This document shows positions 15,844 to 56,622 of a DNA stretch of 64,000 nt, in pieces. The notes under the pieces are model-generated. The model was not told where the DNA came from, did not search any database, and saw nothing but the letters and a program-made list of their open reading frames with translations. A program made the position numbers and the translations under genes. The stretch is from positions 12,767-76,766 of the IMG/VR virus record IMGVR_UViG_3300032233_001500. The stretch is one strand, 5' to 3'. The DNA comes from a virus (Duplodnaviria > Caudoviricetes). Within the stretch, counting starts at the first letter, position 1; every line of letters starts with the position of its first letter.

Positions 15844-15850
15844 TATTTAG
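15844..15850 (-). promoter_or_regulatory. Late promoter variant CTAAATA
   Basis: TATTTAG overlapping the gp14 stop, upstream of gp15. Confidence 0.5.
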
Positions 15851-24100: not shown

Positions 24101-27100
24101 ATTTGCAGAAACATCATAAGCAATTGATAAATCTTTGACTTGTGCAGTAGATCCTACTCCAACTTGATAGGATACAGGAACTGTTATATTATTGATAATA
24201 TAACTAGAAATGCCAGCAATATATCTAAAAGAATCAACGGTTTCTACTTGTTCTCCAGTTACATAACTAGTACCGAGTCCACTCCAATATGAAACACCTG
24301 CGCCAACGGACTTATAATTACCACCGTACTTAACATCATATGCAAGAGCATCAACAATATATCCAACATCTCTAAGACATTTAGTTCTACTATAAGTTGG
24401 ATTGGACAATAATCCAGGATAAATTGCAGTTACATATCCTACAGCTTCTGCAGCAATATAATTTTTGTTTAGAATAAGTAATCTAGAAGCATCATCGTAT
24501 CTTCCGCCTGGATCTGCTAGTGGAACATTATTGATAATATATTTAGAAATATCTACAATATGAGTAAAGGAGTCAATAGTTTGGATTTTTTCACCATCAA
24601 CATAACTTGTACCGACACCACTATAATAAGATAAACCAGCTCCTACTGACTTAGAATTACCATTATAACTAAGGTCATAAGCAAGAGCATCTACAATATA
24701 CCCTACGTCTCTATAACATACATCTCTATAATAATTTGCATCCGTAGTAATTCCTGGATATGTTGCAGTTAAGAATCCTACAACTTCTTCTTGAATGAAT
24801 GTTCTGTTCTTAGTGAGTAGATCAGCAGCATCCAAAAATCTACCAGGAGGAAGAACAAATGATTCAAATGAAGCTAATTGTGCTGCTTTCTTAACTGATT
24901 TAACTGGTTTTGTTTTACCATCGTTTGTATCACTACCATTTGTCGCCGAAACATAAAGTCTATTTTCATACAAACCACCAGGGTTGGTAGTAAATCCAAG
25001 ATTACCAGAAGCATCAACTGCTAAAACTTGACCATCCTTACCTGCAGTTGGTGGTAAAGTTAATGTATAATTTGTAGCTACTCCAGTTTGGGAGAGTTTA
25101 AACGTTACTGTTTGATTTAATCCAGTATTGGTATTAACTCCAATAAAATTCAACGTTGAATTGATTCCAACTTGATTTGAATAGAAATTAGTAACATAAC
25201 CAGAACTGGATCGTATTGAATTTAATCCAGAAATATTTGAATTCTCTGGGTCAAGGGTTATACTTGCAGTACCAATAGTAAGAACTCCAGTTATTCTTGC
25301 ATTTCCAGTTACAATTAGATCGGTGGTTGCTCCACCAATAACAACATTTCCAAAAGTGGAAATTCCAGTATACTTGACATTTGTACCAGTAAGATTGGTG
25401 ATAATACCGGTTTGAACTTTCAATGTTGCAATACTTGCAACACCGGCATTGGTCATATCAAGATTGGATGATGTAACACTTGAAATATTACCACTTGCAA
25501 TTAAAGCCTGGGCAAAGGTGGAAATTCCCGTATATTGAATATTCTTACCAATCAAATTGGGAATTGTGCTGAGTCCGGTTGTTCCATCGGTAAATGTAAA
25601 ACTAGTTGTTTGAATACCCGAATTGAGTGCTGGAGTATTCAATGTTATTGAACTTGTACCAATAGAAACCACATAAGAATTGGCAGGAATATTTGTACCA
25701 GTTACTGCATATGAAGAATAAACTCCAAAAGTACTGACACCACTAATAATACTTGTGCCTGCTATTGATAATGTACCAGTATATGTAAAGGATAATCTAT
25801 CACTTGCTACAATTTTATTTGATATATTAAGTTGGTTTGCACTTAGAGTTGTTACTCCGGAAATAGATGCATCATTTCCAGATAAGATAATAGAAGAAAC
25901 GCCGACTGTAAGAATTCCACTTACTCTTGAATTTACGAGAGTACTACTGTTTAAAGTTGCTATTCCACTTACATATAATTGACTACCTATTCCAGAAGTA
26001 AAATATAACTCAGAAGCAACTAATCCAACACTGGAGATGGTAGTACCAATTCCAATATTAATATACGACGTGTCTACGGATAAAGAGCTTACAGTTAGAT
26101 TTCCAGTAACTATTCCACTGTTGATATAAGCTGTAGTAATAATACCCGTGTTTATTCTAGCTGTACTTATAGATCCTGTTGTAAAAATGCCCGCATTTAC
26201 AATCGCAGTATCTATAAAAGCAGTCGTAATAATACCTGCATTTACCAATAAAGTGTTTATAGTTGCAATTCCAATCGCATCAACATTAGTTGTATTTAAA
26301 GTTGTTATCGTTGCAACGCCACTAATATTGGAATTGGTTGATTTTAAAGTTGTTATCGTTGCAACACCACTTATATTAGTATAAGTAGAAGTTAAATTAG
26401 TAACTATTCCAGCATTAATATAAGCATTCTGAACAGTTTGTGTAGATATTATTGCATCTGTAATATTGGCTTGATTTAATGTAGTTACTCCACTTACGGA
26501 AGCACTTGTAAAAATACCAGAATTTGCCGTAACCGTGGTAAAAATTCCACGTCCTGCAGTAATGGTGCTTATATAAACATTTCCAAAGATTCCATTATCT
26601 ACATACAGAGTTGATATAGTACCAATTCCGGTAACATTGGAATTGGTGGAAGTTATAGTAGTAACTATTCCACTTTGAATGTAAGCGTTTTGAATAGTTG
26701 CCTGAGATGATCCTACATTCGTAATAATACCGCTATTAATATATGCATAATTTATAGACTCAATATTTACATTTGAATCGGTAACAAATTGTTTAGTAAT
26801 AGTGGCACTAGTAATTCCAACAGTACCAATTGTACCTCTAGTAATAGTGGCACTAGTAATTCCAGCGGTTGTAATGCCTGCATTATCAATAGTAGCATTA
26901 TTTACAAGTAATGATACCGCTGCAGCATTATTTGTATTTAAAACATCAACGTTAATTTGACCAGATAATAAATCCGTAAAAGAAAAGTCTGTAGCAAATC
27001 CTGAATTAGAAAATACAAAAGTTATTGGTCTAGTAAAAGTAAATGATGTTGCACCAGAAGTATTAAGACCAGTATTTGTAACAATTCTATTTACACCAAT

Positions 27101-39600: not shown

Positions 39601-41147
39601 GAAAAAGTTCCAGAAACTTGATATAAAACTAATTGATTACTATTTGAAACACTTTTAGATAAGTATCCATATGCACTACTATTTTGTCCCTCAATAAAAG
39701 CAGGAGCATTTAAAGTAATAGTAGAATTTAAATTCACATAGGTATATGTTTGGATATCAAATAAAGACAGATTAAATACGCTGCTTGAATTTGTATAGAT
39801 TGAATTTTCTATTCTTAGATCATATGATCTAGCAAGACCAATTTCCAATCCAGAAGAACTTCCAGGAGTTACCGTTCTTGCAGAGAATAGTTTTACAGTA
39901 GTTCCATACCCAATAGTTAATGGGCCATAAACATTATTGACTTGAAGTTGATTTCCAAGAGAAAAAGATATGTAAGAATTATTTGAAGTATCTGTAGTTC
40001 TTGGTTTTTCTAAATCTAAATTTATTGTATTAAGAGTTTCTACTTCATAACCACGGACATATGCCTTTCCTGGAGATATTTGTACAGACAATAACTCTTT
40101 AGAGGGGACATTGCCTTGTTTTGTTAATTGATTTGAAATATATACGCCATTATTTCCTACTCCATCATTCAATGATTCTTTTATCTCAACCTTAAATGGA
40201 AGAACATAATAATCCCCAGCTTCATCATAAGTTCTTCTTGCTAACTCATTTCTAATTAAATTTGGAGAATCATCTCCAGGTTTTGGGAAAACTTGCTTAA
40301 CACCGTCAACCAATCTCATTAATTCAATGAAATTTTCATCATTGAAATCGGTAAGAGATTTTTTAACCAAAGATGCCGATATTTTTAATCTATCTGCACC
40401 AGGAGCTGCAAAGTTGGAAAATCCTCTAGCATTATCATATAAATCTGGATTCTCTTGAGAAGCAACAGCAATGGTTTCATCTATAGACAATCCAACCCTA
40501 TATGAAGGTAAATTTGTATATTGATCTAAAATTAAAGATTGTGTAAATACATCAACAAAAAATCCTCTAATAAAGTATACACCTGTTTCAATTTTAGCGG
40601 AGGAACCAGTTGCAGCAGATTTGGATATAATTGTTGTTGCAAAAGTGGAATTTGATTTTATTGTAGACAATGAATATGAAATATCAGTAAGAGTTATTAA
40701 ATTCTCACCATCTACAAATGTTTTTGTTGAAAAATCATTTTCACTGGCACTTATATACTTTACATATAAAGTATAGTTACCTCTTTCGGATTGGTCACTA
40801 GTTATATAATTTTCTACCTTTGCAGTAACCCCACTCGTTTCACCCTTAATTATACTACCTACAATACTATCAATATAATAAGATACCGAAATTCCCAAAT
40901 GACTTGGATCTATTTGTATGCACGAATATTCTGGATCATATGCAATATTTCCTGGGATAACAACAGATCCCTCTTTGAAAAAATGTTTACCAAACTTTTC
41001 AACTTGATTTTGTAATATAGATTGTAGAGTCGTAAGTTCTCTAGCTTGGATTGGAGTTCCTGGTTTAAATAATACTCTTTGATAATTTTTTGTTACATCA
41101 AAATCATCAAAATATGGAGATGTATTTAGATTGGTATTTTGTGCCAT
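33636..41147 (-). CDS. Large virion structural protein, DUF4815/VrlC-like
   Basis: 2503 aa; NLNTSPYFDDF...VLFKPGTPIQARELTTLQSILQNQ, APGADRLKI, KFKSGFFVDNF, DPLAESF motifs. Confidence 0.9.
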   Translation of the reverse strand: MAQNTNLNTSPYFDDFDVTKNYQRVLFKPGTPIQARELTTLQSILQNQVEKFGKHFFKEGSVVIPGNIAYDPEYSCIQIDPSHLGISVSYYIDSIVGSIIKGETSGVTAKVENYITSDQSERGNYTLYVKYISASENDFSTKTFVDGENLITLTDISYSLSTIKSNSTFATTIISKSAATGSSAKIETGVYFIRGFFVDVFTQSLILDQYTNLPSYRVGLSIDETIAVASQENPDLYDNARGFSNFAAPGADRLKISASLVKKSLTDFNDENFIELMRLVDGVKQVFPKPGDDSPNLIRNELARRTYDEAGDYYVLPFKVEIKESLNDGVGNNGVYISNQLTKQGNVPSKELLSVQISPGKAYVRGYEVETLNTINLDLEKPRTTDTSNNSYISFSLGNQLQVNNVYGPLTIGYGTTVKLFSARTVTPGSSSGLEIGLARSYDLRIENSIYTNSSSVFNLSLFDIQTYTYVNLNSTITLNAPAFIEGQNSSAYGYLSKSVSNSNQLVLYQVSGTFSQNETIKINGELNSRIITSVRDYSLQDICQVVGVTNTFTADVVLNGYLNLAPTGSTFSINSSGIVTNSYNNFGAGISTGDIVAYTKPVETLPTYNIVTNVNTTAKTITLAATTSVVGVNSGSLPSSSITVTGMSIVVPQILNNKDSYLYAEYEKNYISSLDLTSSELVVRKSYGISTVSSYSATKTLETDSNYSIEPYSIEGFNLVYSDGTIQPLTSQNISKPTGDPRTIILSNLNKSSDSNVTLTATLRKKNLKTRKKTFQRANVLSVNLSSKVTSGTGSTSLNDGLTYSSIYGTRVQDNQICLNVPDVLRVLSVFESSTSSDPELPKLQLTNLNTNILNSINGELIIGQSSNAVGLLISNNTTNTVTFIYSNENIFIPGEKVIFQESKVSGTVVLFTNGDRDIKNDFIFYSGSTSEIADYSYLKRKEGVTAPSRRLTIIYQNYTIDSSDSGDFVAVTSFDQDRISQDVLEVDSLLATDVIDLRPRVLPYNSSTNPYSPFEYYGRKYDSTTNNTPHIISKDSQIILSYSYYLGRIDRLYVNQNGQFFVNKGTPSLTPKLPDNIETALEIGTFTLPPYVHFADSISVQLSSHKRYRMQDISKLEDRLQNVEKYTSLSLLETDTKNLTIRDSVTGLNKFKSGFFVDNFKSTLNGDISNPDFNCSIDTTNGTLRPQPYTAGIDLLLGSEVVSGINSVSNPDADYRFVTQLGSPNSVKVGDVLCLKYTDTVFLQNKFATRTENVNPFNVVNWIGVINLSPSSDTWIETSLSKKTVDEEGSYNTAIQQLGVDSNTGLSPIDWGSWETTWTGKQEIGRNNMGSILVSTEQTGQSTYRTGNFDRRRPRGQWAEEATVTSFKDTYTNFNNVTTLTTQKQSREGIQYKVSEKYDSVNLGNKVVSNDLIHTMRSRNIEFVAKRLKPKTQLYGFFDNINVNPYIVPKLLEVTMNSGTFTVGENIVGNLGSASISFRLASSNHKYGPYNQAIEVFVENPYNPTESMPSVYSSTSSILNVDTASLELQVASTFYGYVVSGMKLVGKSSGAVATISNLRLITDVSGTLVGSLFLPDPKLTSTPKFTTGEKTFTLTTSSTNITISGATDSTAETKFTSAGTLQNIEETTLRIRNAQIERSIKTDEKTISNTKTETVASTSRIDRSTVQTRWVDPLAESFEVPDTNGVFITKCDVFFSTKDTKGLPITMQLRTLSTGFPTQTILPFGEVVLDPSKVNTSSDGSLATTFTFESPVYLQGSKQYAVVLLSASDEYRVFISRMGEEDVTTVNKIEAQKIIVSQQPLLGSLFKSQNGATWDPSQLEDLKMTLYRANFYTGASSVRFYNPDLNIGNRQVVTLGVNPLDTYSRRLIVGIANSLTSTQVSDLTNGATVLQLNNSLFQGSVQSVSGSIGINSTLILSSAGAGFTAGFRTYSNISLVTLSGNGSGAKVNLSVQNGVAIAATVSVGGTGYTYGDTFTVNYGSDTDNLGNSLILSIPNTVGVIDKFSSLLITNVQGNPIVNSSGYLYYVGSAGTTTLGVSTITSVSTIRDGLHFRVSHTNHGMYSSNDNVTLSGIKPDQKPETLNADLNSSSTSGITVSSVGIFTSFENQPVSAANTGYVLVGSEVVGYTTISGYVLSGITRKIDGTFANSYSSGDPIYKYELNGVSLRRINTTHNFSRTDLSTYPIELDAYTIKLDMTKNGTDRTSTNVSLPELYFRQSKSCGSYDVVRLVGVGPRATQNIPFNIVRPNIQTLLPEGTSINAQIRTFSGSTPNSSITPFIDQGFEDISLNSNNYLSSPRIICSKVNELTNLTNYPGNKSFTMEVVMNTTDPKVSPIIDLHRVSLITVSNRINSPITNYATDYRVNLLSGDPTAAVYITRIVQLEKASDTLKVLFDAYRHSTSDIRVLYRTVRPDGVDISSALWQPFPGYDNLDINGNVVNPANNNGKPDRLVTSSNSVIDFGSYEFTANKLPQFTLFQIKIHMTGTNSSFVPQIKNLRVIATA

Positions 41148-42771: not shown

Positions 42772-42778
42772 TATTTAG
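42772..42778 (-). promoter_or_regulatory. Late promoter variant CTAAATA
   Basis: TATTTAG overlapping the gp7 stop, upstream of gp8. Confidence 0.5.
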
Positions 42779-45700
42779 TTACTTAATAGACCCTTTGTTC
42801 TAATAACTTTAGGTGAAGTAGTTATTCCAGATAATCCGCCATCGTTATAAACACTAAAACTTTGTGGAATTCCTAAAGATCTATTTTGATAATCATAAAT
42901 TACACCCCAACTATATCTACCATAAAATCCACTAGTATTGATACCAGTATTATTTGATCCTCTAGCATAAACTTGAACATAATTTTCTGTTGAGGATTTT
43001 GGAGCAAAATTGCAAGTAACTGTTACTATTCCAAGAACGGCATTTCCAGAAGTTACACTTTCCACTTTATAAACACCATCAATAAATGAAACAGCCGTAC
43101 CAACTTTTGAATTTGGGTAATTTGACATCCCCCCAAGAGTAGTTGTAATTCCTGTCAATGCGTGACCAACAGCAACATTACTATCTTTAATAATGAAATA
43201 ATCCCCTACCTGCATCTGAGGGTATAATACGCCAAAAGAATTCAATGAAGAATATCCAATACCAAGTCCATTGTCATAATATTCAGATTTTAAGACAAAC
43301 TCTATTTTTGGAGTAGTTGTTCCAATTCCTGGTGTTCCAGTTACAAAAGTAGTAACTCCTATAATAGTACCAAAATCACCTTTTGCTTTTATTGATTTAA
43401 TTGTTTCCTTTTTAAATACATCTTGTTCAATAATAAATGGAGGAGGAGAATTTTGATCATATCCAAATCCACCATCAGTCATAACTATTGAAGTTACTAT
43501 TCCACCAGAAACAAAAGCTGTTCCTGTTGCTTGGTGATATACTGGAGTTGATAATACACAAGTACCTCCATATCCAACAAAAACGTAAGTTCCATCATAT
43601 CCCAAAGAAGGAAGGCTTATTACATCTTTTATTAGATTCAATTGATTGGTACTCCTGTATATCCAATTACTGAGATCAAAAGAATAATAAAGGTCTCCAG
43701 TAGAAGTTATTGCTACATAAAGTCCATCAGTATAGTCTATAGTTGTAAAATTAACAGAAACATTTGTAGTAATCAGAGTATACGTGGATTTGGAACTAGA
43801 TATCGCAACAACTCCACTATTTCCTACTATAATAAATTTATTATTGACATATACTACTTTATTAAGATCACTGCCGGTGAATGATTGTTCAATATCCCAG
43901 ATTAAACCATTACTAGAAGTAAGTACAGTTCCATATTTACCAACAGCAACGAAGTATCCTGATGTTTGAGTGGAAGAGAAATCAACACTATTCAAATCAT
44001 TCAAAGTCTGAGAATATCTACTTCTAAAATAATCCGTTCCTATACCCATTCCTGCAAATATAGATCCTCCTGTACCAACGGTAACAAAGGTATCATATGA
44101 ATTTCCATAAGCAACATCAGTTAAAGTTCCATTGTATGAAGTCAAATTCTTACCAATAGGTCCAAGACCAGGCAATATTATTTCTTCATAAAGAGGAATT
44201 TGCGACCAAGAAGATATTGTAGAAGAATAACCGGTAGATTTTGTAACAAAAGCAGAACTACCAACAGATACTAACATTGATGTAGTTCCTAATCCAACAG
44301 AAGTAATTGCATTAAAGTTTATGGTAGATCCATATCCCAAAGAAGAACTAATCCAATTTTGACCATCAATACTTGTTACTAAAGCTGAAGAATTACCTAC
44401 TCCAACAAATAGATTTGAATATGAAATTGCATTTATTTGATAAGTGGTTGGAATTCCATTAGAATACTGCCAATTGTATATTGGATCTTTTCTCTTTATA
44501 TAAGATTTTGAAAATACAATTTTTGGAGAAGATGTGTAAGCATATCCAACTCCAGGATAAGTTATAATTGGGTTATAAACTGTGGATGCCGAAGATACTA
44601 CACTTAATCCATATGCACCATCAATATCTTTATTTTCAGTAATCAAAATTTCACATAGATCCTCACCTAATCCATCCACATCAGTAAATATTGGATAAGC
44701 ATTATCCACATAAACTTGTATATCTGTGGGTGTAACTGGTTTGATGAGAGTTGCAGTGGGTTTTATGGTACTCTTTAAAGTAGGTCTCTCTTTTGAGTAT
44801 AAAACTCCATTAATAACTTTATCATTTGTTTGTTTTTTATAAGATAACGGTCTAATATCAGTATTATCAGTATTAATACCAACACTACTATATGGGAATG
44901 TTTTAAATGAATCAGCAGTAGTTAGATTTTTAATTACTCTACCGAGTTGGTCAGTATCATAGACATTAGTAATATTTTTCCCAATTACTATTTCATCACC
45001 GACCTTTATTAGTTGTGGTGGATCTACCAGAACAACATCGAGAGAAGATCCTCTATAGTAAAGGATTGTGCAACTAGAATTTGGTTTTGGAGCCTCAGTA
45101 AATACAATTCTAGTTCCTTGTATAGAATATGCATAATTTGGAACTTGTAATATATCATTTACAAAAATTATAAAATTATTAGAAATATCCAAATCCGAAC
45201 CATCTAAGGTTTTAAGTCCTAGAGGTTGTATTACTCCATCAATATTTACATTTAAATCAAATTTCCTTTTACCTCCATCAAATTGATTGGAAATATTTTC
45301 AAAAATAAGAAATTGCCCTAGATAGAAACCAGAGAATTTATCCGTTTCGACCTCTTGGACTGTAAGTGTAAATGTACTAAATGCCGCACCAACTGATGGA
45401 TTAGTAGTAATTCCTGGAGCATATAAGGTATCACCAGATTTATATCCAGTACCAGGATCATCGATATAAAATCCAATGACACTAGAACCTTGTCCAACTG
45501 ATACTGAAATTTTAGCTCCTTGACCAACTCCAGATGCTCCCGTATAAGAAACACCAATATTACTATATGATGTAGGTATTCCAATTACAACATCTGGAAC
45601 TGAGGTTGTAGTGTATCCAGAACCAGGATTAACAATTGTCAATCCAGTGATTGTACCACTAGTCCCAACTATTGCTGTTATGCTAGCTCCAGATCCAATT

Positions 45701-48700
45701 GGAGATATTACATTTATTGATGGAATACTACCATATCCAAATCCAGAACCAATGAGAGTTATATTTGAGATTGTACCCGCAGCGGATACTGTTACCGTTG
45801 CAGCTGCACCAATTAATGGTTGATATCCAAATCCTGTGTTAACGGATACTTTTGAAATTTTACCTCCTTTTGGAGCACCAGAAATAAATTTAATAATATT
45901 CTGAGCCGATCCTTCTATAATATAATCGGAACCAGGAACTTGAAGTATATTATTAATTAGTATAATGGGATTATTATTAATTTCTGTTGGCGAATTTACA
46001 CCGTTATAAAGAGTTTGTGTTGTGGATCCATTTGAAAATAGTGTAAATTCAGTAGAAGCTGTTCCAGTAAAAGCTAGAGATATATCATCTAAAATAATAT
46101 TTTTATCTAGAGGTTGAGAAGCATTTAATTGTCTTGAGAATACTCTACCAGAAAAACTGGATGAAGTTTCCATTCCGACTGGACCTATAGGTCCATATGG
46201 AGGAGTAGTGAAATAAATTACATCTCCCAAGATATTATAGTTACCTCCCATAACTGTGCAAGAAGAGGATACGATATGTGTTCCTGCTAATGTGCCTAAT
46301 GATCCTCTATCAACTTCAACAGCATTTGAAGAAGAAATTCCAATAGTTTTTACCGTCAAATATTCATTGTCAATATTAATGATATCATTAGATCTCAATG
46401 AAGATATTCCAGATGAGATATTAATTATTGTAGTTGAAGCGCTAGAAACTGAAGAAGCTAAAGAAACATTTAATGATTTTCTATAAAGAGGAGATTGAAT
46501 AATTCCATCTATAGATATCAAAGTACTTGCATTGGAGTTTTTGTACTCGAAAGAATGATATCCAGTGCCAAGACCAGAAAGTGGTAGAAATATACTTGTG
46601 GATAACCCAGATACTTTAAATTCATTATCATTTAATTTATATACAAACAAACTTGTTGGCAATATTTTAGTACCTAGTTCCAAAGGAGAAACTTTAATAG
46701 TATCTGTTGGAGAAGATCCCCCAATGTATGTTCCAGAAATTGAAACCACTGACGTAGTTGCATATCCAGAACCACCAGTTACCACAGAAACATCTGATAT
46801 AAATCCATTACTATCTCTGGAAATATTGAATATTGCTCCACCAGAACCAGATTCGGGAACATTTGAATATGATCCATTTGCTTGACTTGGAATTTGGGTT
46901 GGAGCTGTAGATGATACTTTAAAAGATAACGTATTTGTCGGATTAGTTCCACCCAAATAAGTACCAGCTATGGAAACCGTATCTCCAACTGCAAAATTAG
47001 ATCCACCATTGAGAAGAACAATGGAGGTTGATATAGGTTGTCCAGTTGTTATTGAGTAAGAAATTAAAACATTAAATGTAGCTATTCCAACTCCATTTGT
47101 TCCATTTACAGAAGGATAAAGTTTAAAAGATGGTCCAACCGGAGATAAAGTAGTTGATATACCAGTTATTGACGTAGAAATGGAAACACTGTAACCATTT
47201 TCAAAAATAGCCGTACCTTTGTAATTAGAAACACTGATTAGAGTTGAAGTTATACCAGTTACATATGATGTAGTTGCTATTCCAATTGGACTTCCATTTC
47301 CATAATTATAAATTAATTCCTGACCTGTCTGATAGTTATGATTTGGAATTGTAAACTTGTTGTTTATAATATCAATCTTACTGGATGAAGATGCATCAAA
47401 TGTATGTTTGAATAAGGAAGTACCTTTATTAGTCAATTTAAACGTAGATAATCCTACTACTATGCCTCCCTCAGATAATGATGGATATGTAATTATTGGT
47501 GCATAACTTGTACCAAGTCCGATTATTGTGGTAATAATTCCAACATAATTACTAATTGATGTCCTAACATCAGCACAATCGGTAGTACCATAACTTTCTG
47601 TTGGAATTGCAGAAAGGCTTCCAGTCAAAATGGCAGTTGTGAGTATTCCAACTAGATTTGATACGTTAGTTTGTACATTTGAACAAGATGATGGCGAAGT
47701 ATTAAATCCAGTTATAGGATCTGGAACAATTGTCAAATCTTTTACATTTAATTGATTAGTAAGAGCTTGATTAATGTAATCCCTTGCAGATTTAAATGCA
47801 TAGACAGATTGTAATTCTTCACCAACTAAACCACTTGTTAAAGCTACTCCAGCACCAGTGAAATATTTTTTGGTTGCATAGATGATATGTTGATTTGAAC
47901 CAAAAGCAACATCCTCTGCGATAGAGTCAACAATATAACCTAGGTCTCGGTAACACTTATTTCCACCCGTTGTATAAGTCCCTACGTTAACTGATGGAAG
48001 TCCAGTAGTAGATCCTACACTAATGACAGATGTGACTATTCCAACTAAAGTTGAAATGGTATTTTGTACGTCTGTACAAGCAGAGGTATTTGTATTAGCG
48101 ATATTTCCACCACCACCTGCATATGTTGAAGGTCCAACGGAAACAGTAAGATCTTTAATTGTGAGATTGTTGGTAATTGCCAACTTCATTAAGTTTCTTG
48201 CTTGTGTAAAAGCATAGATGGATTGAGTTTCCTCACCTACCAATCCATTAGAAATAGGTACTCCATTATTAAAATATTGAAGAACAAATTGTCTAGAATA
48301 ATTATTACCGCCAGTAAATATGTCGGTAGAAACTGCATCAATAAAATATCCAAGATCTCTCTTACATTTTGACTGAGTAGTTGATATTCCAGTGTACACT
48401 CCAACTGTATTTGACCAAGAAGTGTTAATGATTTCAGTTTTATTTTGTTGAATTAGACGGTATGCATCATAATATCTTGATCTAGAGTTTGTTTGAAGAT
48501 CGCCTGGGAAATAAAAATCGGAAAATCCAATAGCAACAGAAGCTAAAGATTTATCTAAAATTTCACGACGATTTGCAACTATTAGATTTCTTGCGTCCTT
48601 GTAACGATAAAGATTAATATTTAATGGATCTTGGATCAAACTTAGATTGAATTGTTGCGAAACAGATGTTTGATAAAGAGTAGGTGGAGTTTGATTATTG

Positions 48701-51700
48701 ACAATATATTGTGCAAGAAATCTTACATAATTATATGCGAACAGAGTTTGCTCACTTTCATTTGCAACATAAGATATTCCAGCATTCCAATAAGCTAGAC
48801 CGGCTTCGACTGATTTATCATTAGAATTATATTTAATGTCGTGCGATAGTGCATCCACAATATATCCAACGTCTCTTTTGCAAGTAGTTGCACTATATGT
48901 TGTGCTCAATCCAATAGTTGGGTAATTATATTCTACAAATGCAACTACTTCCTCTTTTATAAATTCTTTATTTAAATCAATCAAATTAGAAGCATCCAAA
49001 AATCTTCCGATTAAATTAGAATCGGAAGAACCAGTAAACTGATTACTAATATCATCAATATTTACTGTTTTATTTGTTTTATTTAAAACATATGAAAGTA
49101 GAGGAATCGAGCTATAAAGATATACTTTTTCGATAGAATCATCTGGCAATAACTCATCTTCATAAACTTCTGCAAAATTATTTCTAGTTAACATTGAATT
49201 TTCATTGTCAATATTAACAATAGTTGATGAACTATTTGCATTCAAATTAATTTTCATACTGGTAGATTTTCCACTACCGACTTCATTTTGAGATGGTTTG
49301 GAATAAATTATCAAATCCGAAAATTCTTTAAATCCAGATGGATGAATAATAGATCTTACAGATTCTCTCCAAGTATCATAAGGTATCTCGCCTTTAACTG
49401 AATATGCAAATTTTTGATAATAGAAGTTATCAGATAATCTTTGTTGGAAGTCATTTAAAATACCAACCGAATTGTCAAGTAATCCAATTTTATCTCTAGA
49501 AACTCCCAGAGTAGCATTTAAATTAAAAACATTAAGAAACTCAATGGTTCCTTTTATATTTGAACGTTCTCCAACTAAAATGTCACCAGTAGTAAGGATG
49601 CCAACAGAATCATTAACACGCAATAGATTCAAATTATTATCCCAACCATTTTCCATTACAAATGCACTAAATTTTTGATTTGTAGAGTAAACTTTCTCTT
49701 TAGATAAGTAACTTACATTGTCATTCAAAATCATTTCAAATGATGCAACATCATTTTTATTAACTACTGTCCCATAATTGAAAGTGGAGTCATATGTTCC
49801 AAATGTTGACGTGTTAATTCCAGATATATCGTATGTAACCGTATTGTTATACGCACTGATATCAACAACAGTAAAATAACTGTAATCATAGTCGGCAGAA
49901 TTGAAATTAAGATAATTATTGGAGATAGAATCTGATGTCAATCTACAATTTTCGATAAAAATTTTGTCTCCAACAGCAAAAGGAAAATTAAATGCTGTCA
50001 AACCAAATCCACTAGATATGAATTTATCTTCTACAAGTTCTAATATACAAGTGTTTGTAAGTAAATTTACTGTGATATTGAAAATTTCGTATCCATTTGA
50101 ATTTCTAGTTGGAAGTATTTCCAAAGGTCCACTTAAACCGGTTACATTTTTATCAACATTTACATTGACTACAGAACCACCAGAGATTGAACAGGACAAT
50201 TGAATTTCTGGATAATCTTTTACAACTAGTACTGGATTTGAATTATATCTATTACCACCAGTAATAATTCCAATATAATCTATAGTTCTTATATCTTTAA
50301 GTGCAATTATACCTGGAGTGGCGAGAGTGGGCGAAAGAGTTGGGTCAGTGGGATAATCAAATCCATCTTTTATTCGTTCTAAAGTTTTGACTTTTCCAAC
50401 ACTATTAGATAATACTTTTACAACAGCATTTTTACCTCTAACTGTTTCTATAGAAGTTACATAAGGTAATTTTGTATATCCTTTACCTGCATAATTAACT
50501 TTTAATCTTTTAATGCCCCCAAAAGCATTAAAAGATTTAGTAGAATACGTAAAGTTGGATAAAGATAAGTTATAAGTTTCATCATATGACAGGGATTTAT
50601 TATTTTGTATTGAAAATGTCGTATCGCCCAATACCGTAACTACATAAGTATCATTTAATGAATTTTGTTTAGTTGAAATTTTATTAGCACCAATAACTAA
50701 ATTATCGGAAGAAATTTGATTCTTTTCTGTTCCAACCAATCCTTTTGTTAATAAATTATAATAAAAACTAGTTGGAAGATGTGAATTGGAAAAATCTATA
50801 GTAACATATGCATTAGTATTACCCGGTAATATAGTCCCCCTATCTATTGCAAATCCATCATCAACAGTCCCTACTATCTCAATTCTCTTCGCAAAATTAT
50901 TGTCATAGAAAAATTCCAAATTCATATTCAATAAACTTGAATCTGAAAGATCAAAATTTACTATATTTCCTTGGAATATTTTTATGGGAGGATTTATGAA
51001 ATATAAACTTTGATTACTCCCACCAGTTGAAGTTAAATTAATGTAATTTGAAATTTTAATGTCAGAGTAATTGTTACACAATTTTATATACTTGTCACTA
51101 ATTTTTAATACATAATAAACTCCATAATTAGTTAATCCACCAATTGGATTACTAGAAATATAAACTACTTTATCACCCGTTTTTATTTCATAGAGATAAT
51201 TTGAAATATCGATCTGATCATTGCTCACCGAAACGTTAGAATTATTAAAAGAAATTTGATTCAAAAGTACTTTCCTATTAACAGAATCGTATATTACTTT
51301 TATTTGTTGAGTATCGTTTGTATTTACTTGTAGATCAATAGTATCATTACTTACCAATCCATGATTAGTTTTTGTAGTAAAAATTCCGACTGATTGTGAA
51401 ACTTTTCCGGTAATTTTTGCATTGGTTGTAACTAAAGAATGTGCATATCCAATTACTCCAAATGCTTCTGTCAAATTCCAAAACTCTAAAGAATTTAATT
51501 GAGTTCCTATTCCAGAACTTGTAGTAAATCCTAAAGTAGATAGTCCCACATAATCTTTACCCAAATTAACTGCATAGACATTTTGACCTTTTTGCAGTTT
51601 GAAGGAAACCCCAGATCCTACATTATTTACTACAAGAGAAGTTCCACCAATACCACAATCATAAATTAATGATTGACCAGTAAAGAATTTGTGATTGGGT

Positions 51701-54700
51701 ACATAAATGCTTCTTGTTGGGATAAATCTAATTTGTGTTGATGATGTACCGATGCCAGTAATTGTTCTAGTAACTCCGTCAGTACCGGTTCCAACAGTAC
51801 TTTTTGGATCAAAAAATGTTGTAGTATTTTCAAAAGTTACATCTTTAATTTGTTCATTTATTTTGAACTCAAATTTTGTTGGCAATAATATAACATTTTC
51901 AAGGCTACGGGTATGTGGTGAAGGATTTGAGAATCTATTAACATAAAGTCTAGAATTTTCTTCTGATACTCCAGTTACCAATAAAGTTTCAGTTGAAATA
52001 CCAATAAAATCATTTACTTCAAAACCAGTTATATCCTTAACAGTTATAAAAGTTGATACTCCAGTAATTGAAACAGATGGAATATCATTGGATAACTCTA
52101 CAGTTTTATTTTTAACAGAAATATATTGTATCCCTTCAAGAATAGAAGAAGTTATAGTAGAAATTCCAGATATTAAAACTGGTTGTTTATCTATTAATGA
52201 GTGTGGACTACTCGTTTTTGCCAATATAGTTGAATTTTTGGTAATAAAATTCACATCAGTAATATTACTACTCACAAGAGAATAATTTGTTATACCGACT
52301 CCAATAAGTTCCGATACTACTATATTTGCAGGACTTCCACCCGTGCCATCTCTATTGAGAATCATTCTGTCATTAATTTGATAATTTTCACCTGGAGAAA
52401 ATACAAATGTTTCTGGAGCTGAAGCAGTTTGCAATTCCGAAACTCTAAATTCTTGTTTGGAAGTATCCGATACTTTATCAATTAAGTCATATGAAGAACT
52501 TGAGGAATTTAAATAGTATGAACTTACATTCCTACTTAACTGACTTGAAAAAATATCCAGATCTTGATTAAATTTTGGAAGGAAATTCTCTGTAATTGGA
52601 ACATCTTTAAAATAATTACCAATAATGTACGGGAAAGCTGGTGTTGAATTATAATTTGAATCTACGGATATTGTATAAAAATAAGCATAAGTTCCATCAG
52701 GATATTGTGGAGTTACACAAAATCTTCCATTATATTCATCTAGATCTCCAGATGCATTGTAAATATAATCAGATATAAAATATCCCGCTTGTTGCAATTG
52801 TGGTCTAATAAGAGGATCGTTTTCCTTATTAATTACATAACTAGAAACCATTCTCTTAACACCACCAGTTCCATCCGAATTGGTATATCCATATGGACCA
52901 TAAATTGGATTTCCATCATAAGCAAACCCAAGAATGGGTGAGTGATTTGGTGTTCCAAAAGAATTTTCTAAATTATTATTTGTAAAATTATCTAATTTTT
53001 TATATCTTAATTTTTTGGGGATGTAGAAATTAGTAAACTGTAATTCCAGATTTGGATTTTTATTTGGGTATAAAACTCCATCGTCATCACTTGAAATAAT
53101 ATTTGATGATTTAACTACTTGATTTATACTCCAATTAGTTACGTTCGCTAAGAATTTAGCCCCAGTCCCGCGATTTGTTAAACTTAATGTTGTATTTGAA
53201 GATGCATATCCAACTCCACCATTAGAAACATTTATTGAAGTTAAAGATCCATCACTAGATACTGTTGGAATTATTTTTGCATAACTTCCAACTCCTTCAA
53301 TGGTTATGTCAGAATCTTGCCTGTATCCATTACCTTTATTGACAATTTTGACATCTACGATTGATCCATTAAGTACAATTGGTTTTAAAATTGCCTGAGA
53401 TGTAACACTAGAAATCCCAACATCAGGTCTTCTATGGAAATTAATTATATCAGCACACCCATACCCAGAACCAGAATTTTCCAAATAAACATCTGTAATT
53501 TTACCCAATATAACTGGGTCCAAAACAGGAGCAATTGCAGTAGTAGATCCAATAGAAATTGATTCTACACTAATTTGAATTGGTGGATAAGAAATTATAT
53601 GAGTTCCTACTCCAAGACTAGAAAATGAAACGTAATTTTTATTTAAATAATTTTGATTACTTATACTTGCACCAATACCTGCCGAAGATAATTTAAATTT
53701 ATTGGAATCAATTACTGTAATATAATAACTAGTAGATGTAGATAACCCAGAAATTGGTGCATTTGTTGTGGAGTAATTAACCAATTCTCCACTATTAAAT
53801 CCATGATTTATGGCAAAAAAGTAAGAATCAAAAGTGTTTATTCCAACAGTTTTATTATCTGCAGAAAGTACTGATGGAACTTTTATAACTCTATTTGAGT
53901 ATCCTTGTCCAGAATTTTTAACATATACTTCTGTAATTGTATTTTTATTTTTTAAACTTTCAAAATAATGAAATCCAGAAGAGATGAATGGGAAACTTAT
54001 AGCATTTGTTTGTGATATTGCATCCGAATTGGTTTTATATATTTTTACCAAATTTGTACTAGGATTTACAATACCAATAAAATAATGGGAACCATCTATC
54101 AATCCATCTATATTTGGGTTTTCATTTGCATTGTAGATTATTTCTTCATAGTTATTAAAAGAAATTCTATCTAAAAATTGTATGGTATTGTTTATAGTAT
54201 CTACATTTAATTGTGCATTAAATCCATTAGAAACTCTAGATTTTACAAAATTACTTTCTAAAACACATCCACTCCCATTTCCACCAGAAATAGTAATCTT
54301 GGGTTTCTCTGCATATCCAATTCCAGGGGAAATTACATTTATTTTTTTAACATCTCCAATAACAATTGGAAACACTTTTGCCCCAGAACCGGCATTATCA
54401 ATAATACTAATCGTTGGTCTATTAATAACATCATAACCATCGCCACTGTCAGTTACTTTAACTTCTGACAATTTTCCATAAAATACACTTTCATCAAAAA
54501 CAGTAGGAGATAGTATTTCTACGCCATTGACCAAAATTCCTATTGATTTATTAGCTGTAGTTCTTTGATTTAAATCATCAAATTCAGTATATTTTTTATT
54601 AAAGTTAAATTTCTTAAGGAGTTTTTGATTTTTTAATACTTTATTTTGATATCCATTTTTAATTACAGTAGCACTAGAAATGCCAGAAGATGATATTTGA

Positions 54701-56622
54701 ATATATTTCTTAGAAAAAATATCAGATTTACTAAAAGATAATGAAATATTATTTGGAGTTAAATTGGTAACGTAATATAATCCAGTGGATATCCCAGAAG
54801 TATCATTGGATGATGGAGAATAATAGACAGATTCTCCAGTTGTAAAAGTATGATTGGTGCAAGTAAATGCACTAGTTCCACCGATACCAGAAATATTTTG
54901 TTGATTATTAGTGGAAAATATGGTGTAATTTGGTAATCCGGTAGAGGTCACATAAAAATATTCTTCATTTGAATCAATATAAGTATTTTGAACTCCGCTT
55001 GGTATAGAACTTAATTGATTTAAATAATTTAAACCATTCAAATAATGATTTGCTTTATATATTTTCTTAACTACTTTTTTGGAAAATGTTGGGTCAAATG
55101 CGGAATCTAAAATTTGTACGTCAATACTATTGGAAAGTTGATTAGTTCCACCATTATAATTAATATTAACTACAGTGGCATTGAAAGTACTCCCAAGATT
55201 GTCTTCAATATATAAATTTTCCTGCAAATCAAAATATACGTAATCAAATAAGATTATTCTATATTTGTATAAACTAATTGAATTTATTTGAGATATATTA
55301 TGATTTGTTGGGATATTATAAATCCAACTATTAAATTCATTTTTATTACCCAAATCTTTGCCAAATCCGGATAATTTAATGGTGTCACCTACCACCATAT
55401 TAGAAGTGTTTGATGTATCAATGTCATTTATTACGTTCACAATTCTAAATCGTACTTCGGATGTATTTCCAGTCCCGATGTAACTATATGCAAATTTTTC
55501 TTCCTTTACATCTAATCCAAAATCCAATTCATTAGTTACCCCAGTAACTCCTAAAAATTGATTAACAGTTTTGTCAGTATATTGGATATGGATGAAATCT
55601 GAATTTTTTGGTTGAACAATAATTGTTCCAGATTCCGAAAACCCAACAGTAGAATCAACTAAAATGTTATTGGATCCAACTGAAACTGTTTCTAGAATTT
55701 TAGTTTTACCAGATACTTGAAAATTTCCAGTAAATGAAGTGGAGTCTAATGATATTTCATAAAATTCTTTTTGATTTATGGGTCTATATTCAACATTATA
55801 GATTGATGCACTTGCTGTACCAACTCCAGTAATATTTTGATATAAGAAATTACCTTTAATATTGGTAGCATCACCACCAGAGATTTTTTCTACAAGTATA
55901 TTTTTTGTGGTAAAGTATGAGTTGGAAGATGGTATTAATGAAAAATCTTGCGGTTTTATAATTTCAATATCTTTTCCATAAAGAATTTTGAATAATAACT
56001 TATAAGATTTATCAGTACCTTTAGATGAATAAAATGATCTAATACTAGTTAAAACATTTTCGATAGATACAGATTCATTAAAATCTCTTCCCTCAAAACC
56101 AGGTAAAAATTCTGATTTGAATTTATCAAAAAATTCTATTAAAAATAAATTACTTAAATTAGTTACTGTTGAACTAGATGTGTGTTCACTTGATGAAGAA
56201 GATGAAAAATTTAAGAATTTGGAATTATCAAGAGATTTAATAGAGTCAATGCCACTAAATCCCCTTAAACATCCAACAAAACTAGTATTTGTCTTGGATG
56301 TATATGTAATAATCTCATCATCTATTTTTAATAATCCATATTTCTCTGGCCAACTTTTAGTTGATGCAACATTAATTGTCGAATCAAAAGATAAAACATC
56401 GGATGTAAGAGTTGTCGAAGAATTTAAGTTATCGTTATTAAATTGTTCAATAGTTTTATATTTGTTTATATTATTTGCTAAGTCTAACGTGCCAGATTGA
56501 ACCTCCAAAGAGAGGTAATAACTCTTTAAGAATTGCACAAACAGAGGATATTCCTCATTAATGAATTCTGGAATTTGGGATTCAATAATAGAATCAATTT
56601 TAACTCTTTTGATCTCTGACAT
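42775..56622 (-). CDS. gp7: Giant baseplate wedge initiator protein (4615 aa) with multiple inserted domains
   Basis: Between gp6 and gp8; SQIPEFINEEYPLFVQFLKSYY, IRSFYSSKGTDKSYKLLFKILYG, HSPILGFAYDGNPIYGPYG, IIHPSGFKEF. Confidence 0.85.
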   Translation of the reverse strand: MSEIKRVKIDSIIESQIPEFINEEYPLFVQFLKSYYLSLEVQSGTLDLANNINKYKTIEQFNNDNLNSSTTLTSDVLSFDSTINVASTKSWPEKYGLLKIDDEIITYTSKTNTSFVGCLRGFSGIDSIKSLDNSKFLNFSSSSSSEHTSSSTVTNLSNLFLIEFFDKFKSEFLPGFEGRDFNESVSIENVLTSIRSFYSSKGTDKSYKLLFKILYGKDIEIIKPQDFSLIPSSNSYFTTKNILVEKISGGDATNIKGNFLYQNITGVGTASASIYNVEYRPINQKEFYEISLDSTSFTGNFQVSGKTKILETVSVGSNNILVDSTVGFSESGTIIVQPKNSDFIHIQYTDKTVNQFLGVTGVTNELDFGLDVKEEKFAYSYIGTGNTSEVRFRIVNVINDIDTSNTSNMVVGDTIKLSGFGKDLGNKNEFNSWIYNIPTNHNISQINSISLYKYRIILFDYVYFDLQENLYIEDNLGSTFNATVVNINYNGGTNQLSNSIDVQILDSAFDPTFSKKVVKKIYKANHYLNGLNYLNQLSSIPSGVQNTYIDSNEEYFYVTSTGLPNYTIFSTNNQQNISGIGGTSAFTCTNHTFTTGESVYYSPSSNDTSGISTGLYYVTNLTPNNISLSFSKSDIFSKKYIQISSSGISSATVIKNGYQNKVLKNQKLLKKFNFNKKYTEFDDLNQRTTANKSIGILVNGVEILSPTVFDESVFYGKLSEVKVTDSGDGYDVINRPTISIIDNAGSGAKVFPIVIGDVKKINVISPGIGYAEKPKITISGGNGSGCVLESNFVKSRVSNGFNAQLNVDTINNTIQFLDRISFNNYEEIIYNANENPNIDGLIDGSHYFIGIVNPSTNLVKIYKTNSDAISQTNAISFPFISSGFHYFESLKNKNTITEVYVKNSGQGYSNRVIKVPSVLSADNKTVGINTFDSYFFAINHGFNSGELVNYSTTNAPISGLSTSTSYYITVIDSNKFKLSSAGIGASISNQNYLNKNYVSFSSLGVGTHIISYPPIQISVESISIGSTTAIAPVLDPVILGKITDVYLENSGSGYGCADIINFHRRPDVGISSVTSQAILKPIVLNGSIVDVKIVNKGNGYRQDSDITIEGVGSYAKIIPTVSSDGSLTSINVSNGGVGYASSNTTLSLTNRGTGAKFLANVTNWSINQVVKSSNIISSDDDGVLYPNKNPNLELQFTNFYIPKKLRYKKLDNFTNNNLENSFGTPNHSPILGFAYDGNPIYGPYGYTNSDGTGGVKRMVSSYVINKENDPLIRPQLQQAGYFISDYIYNASGDLDEYNGRFCVTPQYPDGTYAYFYTISVDSNYNSTPAFPYIIGNYFKDVPITENFLPKFNQDLDIFSSQLSRNVSSYYLNSSSSSYDLIDKVSDTSKQEFRVSELQTASAPETFVFSPGENYQINDRMILNRDGTGGSPANIVVSELIGVGITNYSLVSSNITDVNFITKNSTILAKTSSPHSLIDKQPVLISGISTITSSILEGIQYISVKNKTVELSNDIPSVSITGVSTFITVKDITGFEVNDFIGISTETLLVTGVSEENSRLYVNRFSNPSPHTRSLENVILLPTKFEFKINEQIKDVTFENTTTFFDPKSTVGTGTDGVTRTITGIGTSSTQIRFIPTRSIYVPNHKFFTGQSLIYDCGIGGTSLVVNNVGSGVSFKLQKGQNVYAVNLGKDYVGLSTLGFTTSSGIGTQLNSLEFWNLTEAFGVIGYAHSLVTTNAKITGKVSQSVGIFTTKTNHGLVSNDTIDLQVNTNDTQQIKVIYDSVNRKVLLNQISFNNSNVSVSNDQIDISNYLYEIKTGDKVVYISSNPIGGLTNYGVYYVLKISDKYIKLCNNYSDIKISNYINLTSTGGSNQSLYFINPPIKIFQGNIVNFDLSDSSLLNMNLEFFYDNNFAKRIEIVGTVDDGFAIDRGTILPGNTNAYVTIDFSNSHLPTSFYYNLLTKGLVGTEKNQISSDNLVIGANKISTKQNSLNDTYVVTVLGDTTFSIQNNKSLSYDETYNLSLSNFTYSTKSFNAFGGIKRLKVNYAGKGYTKLPYVTSIETVRGKNAVVKVLSNSVGKVKTLERIKDGFDYPTDPTLSPTLATPGIIALKDIRTIDYIGIITGGNRYNSNPVLVVKDYPEIQLSCSISGGSVVNVNVDKNVTGLSGPLEILPTRNSNGYEIFNITVNLLTNTCILELVEDKFISSGFGLTAFNFPFAVGDKIFIENCRLTSDSISNNYLNFNSADYDYSYFTVVDISAYNNTVTYDISGINTSTFGTYDSTFNYGTVVNKNDVASFEMILNDNVSYLSKEKVYSTNQKFSAFVMENGWDNNLNLLRVNDSVGILTTGDILVGERSNIKGTIEFLNVFNLNATLGVSRDKIGLLDNSVGILNDFQQRLSDNFYYQKFAYSVKGEIPYDTWRESVRSIIHPSGFKEFSDLIIYSKPSQNEVGSGKSTSMKINLNANSSSTIVNIDNENSMLTRNNFAEVYEDELLPDDSIEKVYLYSSIPLLSYVLNKTNKTVNIDDISNQFTGSSDSNLIGRFLDASNLIDLNKEFIKEEVVAFVEYNYPTIGLSTTYSATTCKRDVGYIVDALSHDIKYNSNDKSVEAGLAYWNAGISYVANESEQTLFAYNYVRFLAQYIVNNQTPPTLYQTSVSQQFNLSLIQDPLNINLYRYKDARNLIVANRREILDKSLASVAIGFSDFYFPGDLQTNSRSRYYDAYRLIQQNKTEIINTSWSNTVGVYTGISTTQSKCKRDLGYFIDAVSTDIFTGGNNYSRQFVLQYFNNGVPISNGLVGEETQSIYAFTQARNLMKLAITNNLTIKDLTVSVGPSTYAGGGGNIANTNTSACTDVQNTISTLVGIVTSVISVGSTTGLPSVNVGTYTTGGNKCYRDLGYIVDSIAEDVAFGSNQHIIYATKKYFTGAGVALTSGLVGEELQSVYAFKSARDYINQALTNQLNVKDLTIVPDPITGFNTSPSSCSNVQTNVSNLVGILTTAILTGSLSAIPTESYGTTDCADVRTSISNYVGIITTIIGLGTSYAPIITYPSLSEGGIVVGLSTFKLTNKGTSLFKHTFDASSSSKIDIINNKFTIPNHNYQTGQELIYNYGNGSPIGIATTSYVTGITSTLISVSNYKGTAIFENGYSVSISTSITGISTTLSPVGPSFKLYPSVNGTNGVGIATFNVLISYSITTGQPISTSIVLLNGGSNFAVGDTVSIAGTYLGGTNPTNTLSFKVSSTAPTQIPSQANGSYSNVPESGSGGAIFNISRDSNGFISDVSVVTGGSGYATTSVVSISGTYIGGSSPTDTIKVSPLELGTKILPTSLFVYKLNDNEFKVSGLSTSIFLPLSGLGTGYHSFEYKNSNASTLISIDGIIQSPLYRKSLNVSLASSVSSASTTIINISSGISSLRSNDIINIDNEYLTVKTIGISSSNAVEVDRGSLGTLAGTHIVSSSCTVMGGNYNILGDVIYFTTPPYGPIGPVGMETSSSFSGRVFSRQLNASQPLDKNIILDDISLAFTGTASTEFTLFSNGSTTQTLYNGVNSPTEINNNPIILINNILQVPGSDYIIEGSAQNIIKFISGAPKGGKISKVSVNTGFGYQPLIGAAATVTVSAAGTISNITLIGSGFGYGSIPSINVISPIGSGASITAIVGTSGTITGLTIVNPGSGYTTTSVPDVVIGIPTSYSNIGVSYTGASGVGQGAKISVSVGQGSSVIGFYIDDPGTGYKSGDTLYAPGITTNPSVGAAFSTFTLTVQEVETDKFSGFYLGQFLIFENISNQFDGGKRKFDLNVNIDGVIQPLGLKTLDGSDLDISNNFIIFVNDILQVPNYAYSIQGTRIVFTEAPKPNSSCTILYYRGSSLDVVLVDPPQLIKVGDEIVIGKNITNVYDTDQLGRVIKNLTTADSFKTFPYSSVGINTDNTDIRPLSYKKQTNDKVINGVLYSKERPTLKSTIKPTATLIKPVTPTDIQVYVDNAYPIFTDVDGLGEDLCEILITENKDIDGAYGLSVVSSASTVYNPIITYPGVGYAYTSSPKIVFSKSYIKRKDPIYNWQYSNGIPTTYQINAISYSNLFVGVGNSSALVTSIDGQNWISSSLGYGSTINFNAITSVGLGTTSMLVSVGSSAFVTKSTGYSSTISSWSQIPLYEEIILPGLGPIGKNLTSYNGTLTDVAYGNSYDTFVTVGTGGSIFAGMGIGTDYFRSRYSQTLNDLNSVDFSSTQTSGYFVAVGKYGTVLTSSNGLIWDIEQSFTGSDLNKVVYVNNKFIIVGNSGVVAISSSKSTYTLITTNVSVNFTTIDYTDGLYVAITSTGDLYYSFDLSNWIYRSTNQLNLIKDVISLPSLGYDGTYVFVGYGGTCVLSTPVYHQATGTAFVSGGIVTSIVMTDGGFGYDQNSPPPFIIEQDVFKKETIKSIKAKGDFGTIIGVTTFVTGTPGIGTTTPKIEFVLKSEYYDNGLGIGYSSLNSFGVLYPQMQVGDYFIIKDSNVAVGHALTGITTTLGGMSNYPNSKVGTAVSFIDGVYKVESVTSGNAVLGIVTVTCNFAPKSSTENYVQVYARGSNNTGINTSGFYGRYSWGVIYDYQNRSLGIPQSFSVYNDGGLSGITTSPKVIRTKGLLSN

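Follow-up and report, generated by a model that had tools for sequence, protein, structure and literature searches.

Why should a viral baseplate protein contain segments that resemble phycobiliproteins (PBPs), the subunits of the light-harvesting antenna? This question is raised by a 64,000-nucleotide window (the whole stretch of DNA that was analysed, positions 12,767 to 76,766 of IMG/VR virus record IMGVR_UViG_3300032233_001500, a marine cyanobacterial virus of the Caudoviricetes), which comes from a source record of 76.8 kb that is ~38% complete. The initial annotation of this window placed three PBP-like domains with an intact bilin-attachment motif inside the baseplate protein gp7, the 4,615-residue translation product of a giant minus-strand open reading frame (ORF) that we label P0001, and proposed that the virion may carry covalently bound bilins. 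This interpretation is partly supported by the analysis presented here, namely with respect to homology, fold and an intact site. Throughout, residue numbers of PBPs (Cys84, Arg86, Asp87) are to be distinguished from those of gp7.

Homology and predicted fold of the gp7 repeats

The translated gp7 contains exactly three C-x-R-D motifs, at residues 2581, 2753 and 2890. Their codons lie precisely where the initial annotation put them (48880, 48364 and 47953), the peptides that it quoted are all present in the translation, and the interval that it marked, 47515-49005, extends from the first A/B helix of copy 1 to the last Cys-headed helix of the block. The copies are true repeats: in BLAST comparisons, copies A and B are 34% identical (E 5e-13) and copies B and C 45% identical (E 3e-25).

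To relate these repeats to known proteins, we used an alignment of 45 domain copies (A1) as a profile against 177,635 distinct sequences of the PDB. Among the 85 matches at E≤10, the best 60 are all PBPs; the best E is 1.5e-4 (6.9e-4 with a narrower profile), and in the alignment the phage Cys falls on Cys84 while the first helices match PBP residues 33-62. Thirteen of the 45 copies match PF00502 (best E 1.3e-6), and no other Pfam family is matched by more than a single copy; hhalign of a 31-copy alignment against 10 PBPs of one Synechococcus genome gave a probability of 95.1% (E 3.4e-8), with 91 columns spanning helix A through helix G. When the window copies are compared singly with PF00502, domain 3 alone is matched (E 0.03-0.04, 14.7 bits against a cut-off of 22.2) and domains 1 and 2 give no match. 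Some copies of the wider family thus match PF00502, while those of the window remain below its cut-off. A phmmer search of the 550-residue region against the PDB returned nothing, and no solved structure holds a close relative. At the profile level, however, the likeness to PBPs goes far beyond chance in all three comparisons (PDB profile search, PF00502 and hhalign). The phycocyanin strings given in the initial annotation agree with PDB sequences (alpha-phycocyanin, and phycoerythrocyanin beta with P...CIRDLGF), and its ungapped alignment of copy 1 with the beta chain holds in the register L-D-x-x-N-x-[IL]-x-x-N-x-x-x-I...P.

The closest PBPs are alpha-phycocyanin and phycoerythrocyanin beta by sequence, and phycoerythrin and phycocyanin beta by structure. 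Both the sequence alignments and the tight structural alignments begin at PBP residues 31-39, so the canonical N-terminal X/Y helices are essentially missing from the domain copies, as the initial annotation had supposed; only loose structural alignments (3-4 Å) reach X/Y. We conclude that the three gp7 segments are homologous to PBPs, with homology and fold both well supported. The module descends from a PBP, most like a beta subunit, minus the X/Y dimerisation helices. Because these canonical helices are missing, the domains are not PBP subunits but a divergent viral branch of the PBP superfamily.

The predicted structures agree with the profile comparisons. AlphaFold2 modelled A1 without templates at a predicted local distance difference test score (pLDDT) of 91.9 and a predicted TM score (pTM) of 0.85. 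The best 50 Foldseek matches in the PDB are all PBPs (TMq 0.72-0.80, probability 0.85-1.00), at an E of only ~0.03. In VIA, a structural aligner independent of Foldseek that was run on 48,161 representative chains, each of the best ten matches of the 120-residue single-domain model is a PBP, ApcE or a photocobilin (Z 8.7-12.1), and the best of them (Z 12.1) superposes 116 of the 120 residues at 2.4 Å. The first non-PBP chain is colicin S4 at Z 8.2, and generic globin sensors reach Z ≤7.8. The model of the entire 550-residue three-domain block has a pLDDT of 79 and a pTM of 0.72, and its residues 187-344 align on residues 31-177 of a PBP beta chain with Z 16.9 and a root-mean-square deviation (rmsd) of 2.1 Å over 135 residues. 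Because domain 3 aligns over this range, the Cys-headed helix (C-T-D-V-Q...) that follows each core can be read as helix H. The domains are accordingly modelled with the PBP globin-like fold (helices A, B, E, F', F, G and H), and the fold named in the initial annotation is the one favoured by AlphaFold, Foldseek and the VIA check (Z 12-17).

How are three such domains accommodated in one chain? We read their arrangement from the helix bookkeeping of the 550-residue model, which holds three each of A/B pairs and E, F, G and H helices, in the order AB1 E1 F1 G1, AB2, AB3 E3 F3 G3 H3, E2 F2 G2 H2, H1. Domain 3 is contiguous and complete: it proceeds from A/B through E (Cys2753-x-R-D), F, G and a long loop to a helix H headed by Cys2849. 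The core of domain 1 (hidden Markov model (HMM) match 2539-2648) corresponds to model helices 16-42, 54-74, 78-89 and 99-119, and that of domain 2 (HMM match 2847-2963, 45% identical to domain 3) to model helices 361-383, 387-394 and 412-430. The A/B-type helix pair at residues 2672-2699 shares 50% identity with helix A of domain 3 and would be the N-terminal part of domain 2, split off by the insertion of domain 3; some of the loose VIA alignments (rmsd 3-4 Å) instead lay this pair (AB2) on PBP X/Y. The helix headed by Cys2980 (C-S-N-V-Q...) would then be helix H of domain 2, and the helix headed by Cys3016 (C-A-D-V-R...), a residue invariant in 27 homologues, would be helix H of domain 1 and close the nested block. 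In the model, domain 3 would therefore lie within the B-E loop of domain 2, and both within the G-H loop of domain 1. The pairing of YKDARNLIVANRREIL with KCYRD in the initial annotation agrees with this nested order.

The cysteine site across the repeat family

The 550-residue region was compared with 1.8 billion representative proteins, of which 850 are related at E≤0.001. These are mostly 1,000-8,000 residues long, with up to 31 matched stretches each, and the PHROGs families for the region are named 'short tail fiber', 'tail fiber' and 'virion structural protein'. With an HMM built iteratively from the best 150 of these 850 proteins, we gathered ~1,470 domain copies from 151 proteins. In PBPs, the Cys of the alpha84/beta82 type attaches the bilin, and Arg86 and Asp87 help to hold it. 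All three equivalents are intact in each of the three gp7 copies when these are aligned on Cys82/84, and across the ~1,470 copies the Cys is present in 97%, the Arg two residues further on in 96% and the Asp in 99%, so that the Cys is indeed conserved across homologues. Equally prominent are a later Asp (Asp54, 99%), Tyr70 (99%) and a G-G-N motif (68-82%).

The few copies that have lost the Cys allow the site to be separated from the fold. We compared 1,386 full copies that have the Cys with 27 that do not. Without the Cys, Arg42 falls from 97% to 59%, Asp43 from 100% to 63%, Tyr70 from 100% to 70%, E/Q83 from 94% to 52% and Lys39 from 58% to 26%, whereas the fold residue Asp54 is kept (99% with and 100% without the Cys) and G-G-N is unchanged. 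Since Arg, Asp, Tyr and Lys relax while the fold residues are retained, the Cys-centred cluster acts as a unit of its own, distinct from the fold. Coupled relaxation of this kind is as expected of a single working ligand site, and it is to such a site that the conservation pattern points. Two degenerate copies from IMG/VR (L048:989-1348 and L067:500-865) have W-K-S-G or C-K-E-D in place of C-x-R-D, with the fold signature otherwise kept; they provide natural 'site-dead' controls.

A second Cys is found in part of the family. The Cys that heads helix H is present in all 31 extended units of the subfamily to which the gp7 copies belong, and the Cys-headed-helix motif occurs 1:1 with C-x-R-D in P0001, P0002, P0004 and others. 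Range arithmetic places it 19 residues ahead of the aligned C-terminus, where phycocyanin beta has Cys153 and phycoerythrin beta Cys158. When 10 PBPs were searched with a mini-profile built on this helix, no significant placement at the beta153 region was obtained, and a large subfamily of repeat proteins (15-31 copies per protein) does not have this Cys; for these two reasons its equivalence to beta-Cys153/158 is a structural inference only, drawn from the model. Four metagenomic proteins of 4,254-6,382 residues (P0009, P0011, P0013 and P0017) have 18-31 C-x-R-D copies and no Cys-headed H helix. P0025, which belongs to the P0009-type class, has termini that resemble the P-SSM2/P-SSM5 tail-fibre protein (36% identity).

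Where does this family occur? A tblastn search with one copy matched 396 of 50,697 phage records, all of them Synechococcus or Prochlorococcus phages; among these records, the domain is restricted to cyanophages. Named matches in a viral structure library are likewise Synechococcus phages or uncultured Caudovirales, and the public annotation of the domain-bearing proteins is only 'tail protein', 'structural protein' or 'hypothetical'. A pattern scan of 185,579 species genomes, of low sensitivity, found one locus only, on a contig binned into a Synechococcus metagenome-assembled genome (MAG). This contig (JBJBBP010000001.1, 193,981 bp, 'MAG: Synechococcus sp.') is probably a mis-binned cyanomyovirus genome; the phage domain occurs on it at 55% identity. 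In the S-PM2 record (AJ630128, 168556-173383), 16 tRNA features are listed inside S-PM2p218, a stop-free ORF of 3,779 residues; the tRNA coordinates of this GenBank record look displaced.

Proposed bilin attachment and its alternatives

What could such a site bind? We propose that distal gp7 contains three apparently nested copies of a cyanophage-specific, PBP-derived repeat module, each with a ligand site that would be built around the Cys84 equivalent by the Arg86, Asp87 and Lys83 equivalents and a phage-specific invariant Tyr. In the reading that we consider most likely, virions that assemble in the bilin-rich host cytoplasm would acquire a thioether-linked bilin (phycoerythrobilin or phycocyanobilin) on these cysteines, either autocatalytically or with the help of a lyase of the host or the phage, for instance CpeT, so that chromophores would be present on baseplate and fibre proteins. 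Attachment of a bilin to the gp7 domains is a reasonable inference, to which we give slightly less than an even chance; any light-dependent role in adsorption is likewise putative.

The genes of bilin metabolism were examined for a link to the domain. No match to CpeT, Fe_bilin_red or Heme_oxygenase was found in the 76.8-kb record, so the search of the remaining genes suggested by the initial annotation gave no gene of the ho1, pebS or cpeT type in this partial genome; in other cyanophages, cpeT alone tracks the domain. Among 23 cyanophage genomes, a CpeT-family gene is present in 17 of 17 with the domain and in none of the 6 without it; 2 of the 17 genes emerged only when thresholds were relaxed, and both occupy the conserved position. 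In Syn1, S-RSM4 and S-PM2, a giant 'short tail fiber' gene that bears the domain follows 0.7-1.5 kb downstream of cpeT. The role of phage cpeT 'remains unresolved' (PMC3037559). The S-type lyase (PF09367) has no match in any of the 23 genomes. In Syn1 (20572-21144) and S-PM2 (165307-165888), a 2OG-Fe(II) oxygenase gene (T4-like GC 104) stands between cpeT and the giant domain-bearing gene, directly upstream of the latter; its product could be a protein-modifying partner.

A comparable correspondence is seen with adsorption. P-HM1, P-HM2 and S-PM2 adsorb only in light, and P-SSM2 and P-SSP7 adsorb in the dark (PMC6628666); we count 5, 5 and 9 domain copies in the first three, respectively, and none in the last two. 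The light dependence of S-PM2, P-HM1 and P-HM2 would be explained if bilins were carried by baseplate and fibre domains, if CpeT were their dedicated lyase and if the chromophores gated adsorption, a chain of steps that we regard as unlikely as a whole. We considered the cpeT co-occurrence and the adsorption match as independent evidence for bilin attachment and rejected them as such. In a tree of the portal protein (gp20), the marine negatives P-SSM2, S-SM2 and S-SSM7 group in a clade that is sister to all positives, the negative S-CRM01 lies outside, and a single gain on this tree explains both patterns.

Several observations weigh against a pigmented virion. Because one transition on the portal tree accounts for them, the cpeT and adsorption correlations are phylogenetically confounded and constitute weak evidence, that is, leads. 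The distribution of pebS and ho1 does not follow that of the domain: P-SSM2 has both genes and no domain. The sequence likeness to PBPs is limited to helices A/B-G, and the phage copies are ~8-11 residues shorter in the B-E loop, with which PBPs cover the bilin. The invariant phage residues Asp54, Tyr70 and Asn60 have no obvious PBP counterpart, and the site may therefore be re-purposed. The occurrence of up to 31 tandem copies per protein is like that of a structural bead-on-a-string module. Finally, we found no publication that describes cyanophage virions as pigmented or fluorescent, or virion peptides as modified by a bilin.

Some of these observations are those expected of a chromophore-free structural module, in which a captured host PBP gene was exapted as a helical building block of baseplate and fibre proteins. 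This explanation is in our view only somewhat less probable than bilin attachment. It fits the very high repeat numbers in giant proteins and the presence of the module in gp7 and tail-fibre proteins alike, in the manner of immunoglobulin-like (Ig-like) or collagen-like modules, as well as the shortened B-E loop, the new invariant residues and the lack of literature reports of coloured virions. The Cys/Arg/Asp/Tyr cluster would then serve contacts between proteins, for instance inter-domain or inter-chain packing, or a post-lysis disulfide, a role that we hold to be equally tentative. However, a lone Cys that is present in 97% of copies together with exactly the bilin-holding residues of PBPs is hard to explain by packing, and the coupled relaxation upon loss of the Cys, with fold residues kept, speaks for a ligand site and not a scaffold. 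In PBPs the positions of Cys84 and Cys153 are far apart, which makes an intradomain disulfide unlikely.

It is improbable, but consistent with a site that behaves as a functional unit, that the ligand is not a bilin but a metal ion, a different tetrapyrrole or some small molecule, or that the Cys is a redox-sensitive thiol. The invariant Asp54, Tyr70 and Asn60 are specific to the phage domains, and the nearest structural relatives outside the PBPs include the bilin/B12 photoreceptor domains of photocobilins and haem globin sensors, so that the fold evidently accepts different ligands. Yet one Cys with an Arg and an Asp is untypical of a metal site, and the residues kept are precisely those that contact the bilin in PBPs. 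As for a generic helical bundle that resembles PBPs by chance or convergence, with no common ancestry, the sub-threshold single-sequence Pfam score, the failure of copies 1 and 2 to match and the middling structural Z scores that helical bundles often yield could be cited for it, but it is largely refuted and very improbable given the PBP-only best matches of the PDB profile search, the hhalign result with the motif in register on helix E, and the three-domain-block superposition at a Z well above that of generic globins.

If the domains do bind bilins, the cyanophage virion would be the first viral particle for which a photopigment is known; without pigment, too, a host light-harvesting protein has been turned into a building block of the viral attachment organelle. 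Whether the particle carries pigment and senses light can now be tested, and two old cyanophage puzzles become directly testable, one of them being why cpeT, but not the remainder of the host operon, is found in the majority of these phages. We found no prior description in the published literature, which bears out the statement of the initial annotation on this point.

Genomic setting and known systems

The coordinates of the domains and of their host ORF are collected in Table 1. The identification of this ORF as gp7 follows from its N-terminal wedge matches together with the T4 order of its neighbours: PF23786 (Baseplate_wedge) scores 26.2 bits against the N-terminus, just below the cut-off of 27, residues 5-2541 are covered by phrog_2885 'baseplate wedge subunit' (E 0), and the flanking gp25-like, gp6-like and gp8-like wedge genes match the wedge-subunit families phrog_261/43, phrog_219 and phrog_438. 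The gp7 of P-HM2 (4,458 residues, annotated as baseplate wedge initiator) also has a PBP-like domain. The two copies of the domain that lie in a tail-fibre ORF of the window score 106.5 and 103.2 bits with the HMM; this ORF matches phrog_5342 'tail fiber protein'.

Table 1. Positions of the PBP-like domains and associated features in the window (helix assignments marked 'putative' are read from the 550-residue model)
Feature	Position	Strand	Evidence
Giant gp7-like baseplate wedge ORF (P0001)	42775..56622	-	ORF list and translation, PF23786, phrog_2885, gene order
Domain 1 core, residues 2540-2643: helices A/B, E (Cys2581-x-R-D), F, G	48694..49005	-	
Cys2581 codon (Cys84-equivalent, domain 1)	48880..48882	-	
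A/B-type helix pair, residues 2672-2699, no adjoining E helix (putative N-terminal part of domain 2)	48526..48609	-	model helices 148-175
Domain 3, residues 2711-2869, contiguous, complete	48016..48492	-	
Cys2753 codon (Cys84-equivalent, domain 3)	48364..48366	-	aligned on PBP Cys82/84
Domain 2 helices E (Cys2890-x-R-D), F, G, residues 2885-2954	47761..47970	-	
Cys2890 codon (Cys84-equivalent, domain 2)	47953..47955	-	invariant in 27 homologues
Cys2980-headed helix (putative helix H of domain 2)	47623..47685	-	model helix 457-476; 44% identical to Cys2849 helix
Cys3016-headed helix (putative helix H of domain 1)	47515..47577	-	model helix 493-512; 44% identical to Cys2849 helix
Two more copies of the PBP-like domain, in 3,256-residue tail-fibre ORF 18125-27895	24170..24844	-	HMM

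Other parts of gp7 and of its neighbourhood are also of interest. A YHYH domain (PF14240, E 1.2e-26) lies within gp7 residues 1218-1320 (52663-52971, minus strand), far upstream of the PBP-like block. Residues 3597-3685 (45568-45834, minus strand) form a repeated module in common with the 'head closure Hc2' family phrog_460, which is strongly matched (E 4e-127) by a 467-residue ORF at 15847-17250 (minus strand). The module common to the C-terminal part of gp7 and phrog_460 looks like a decoration or Ig-like module shared between neck and baseplate. The 2,503-residue ORF adjoining gp8 (33636-41147, minus strand) matches families of unknown function only (phrog_358, E 0).

It is instructive to compare the phage domain with the systems that it most resembles. 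With PBP subunits (PF00502) it shares the globin-like arrangement of helices A/B-H (Z 12-17, rmsd 2.1-2.4 Å), a K-C-x-R-D-x-G-Y motif on helix E in register with Cys84, Arg86 and Asp87, a G-G at the end of helix E and, in the model, a second Cys at the start of helix H that would occupy the position of beta-Cys153/158. In contrast, PBPs are free subunits of 160-180 residues that function in the antenna, with X/Y helices that make the alpha-beta monomer, whereas the phage domain has no X/Y helices and a shorter B-E loop, is encoded by a virus and sits in virion proteins of 2,000-8,000 residues, repeated 2-31 times; it is built into baseplate and fibres and is known here from sequence and models. 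ApcE (LCM) likewise has a PBP fold within a large multidomain protein (Z 9.8-11.1 to the phage domain) and binds its bilin autocatalytically, but its PBP domain is single and contains a loop insertion, its Cys lies elsewhere and it belongs to the phycobilisome core, while the phage domain is repeated, nested and part of a virion. The globin domain of photocobilin (PDB 8j2y and 8j2w; Z 8.7-10.7) is a PBP-like photoreceptor outside light harvesting, found in non-cyanobacteria; it differs from the phage domain in being B12-fused and cellular, with 4-9% identity and no C-x-R-D shown in register. Finally, the gp7 of T4 has the N-terminal wedge domain and the gp25-gp6-gp7-gp8 gene order in common with the gp7 described here. 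It is ~1,030 residues long and has no PBP-like domains, whereas the gp7 proteins of cyanophages extend to 4,400-7,300 residues and carry PBP-like, YHYH and other inserts.

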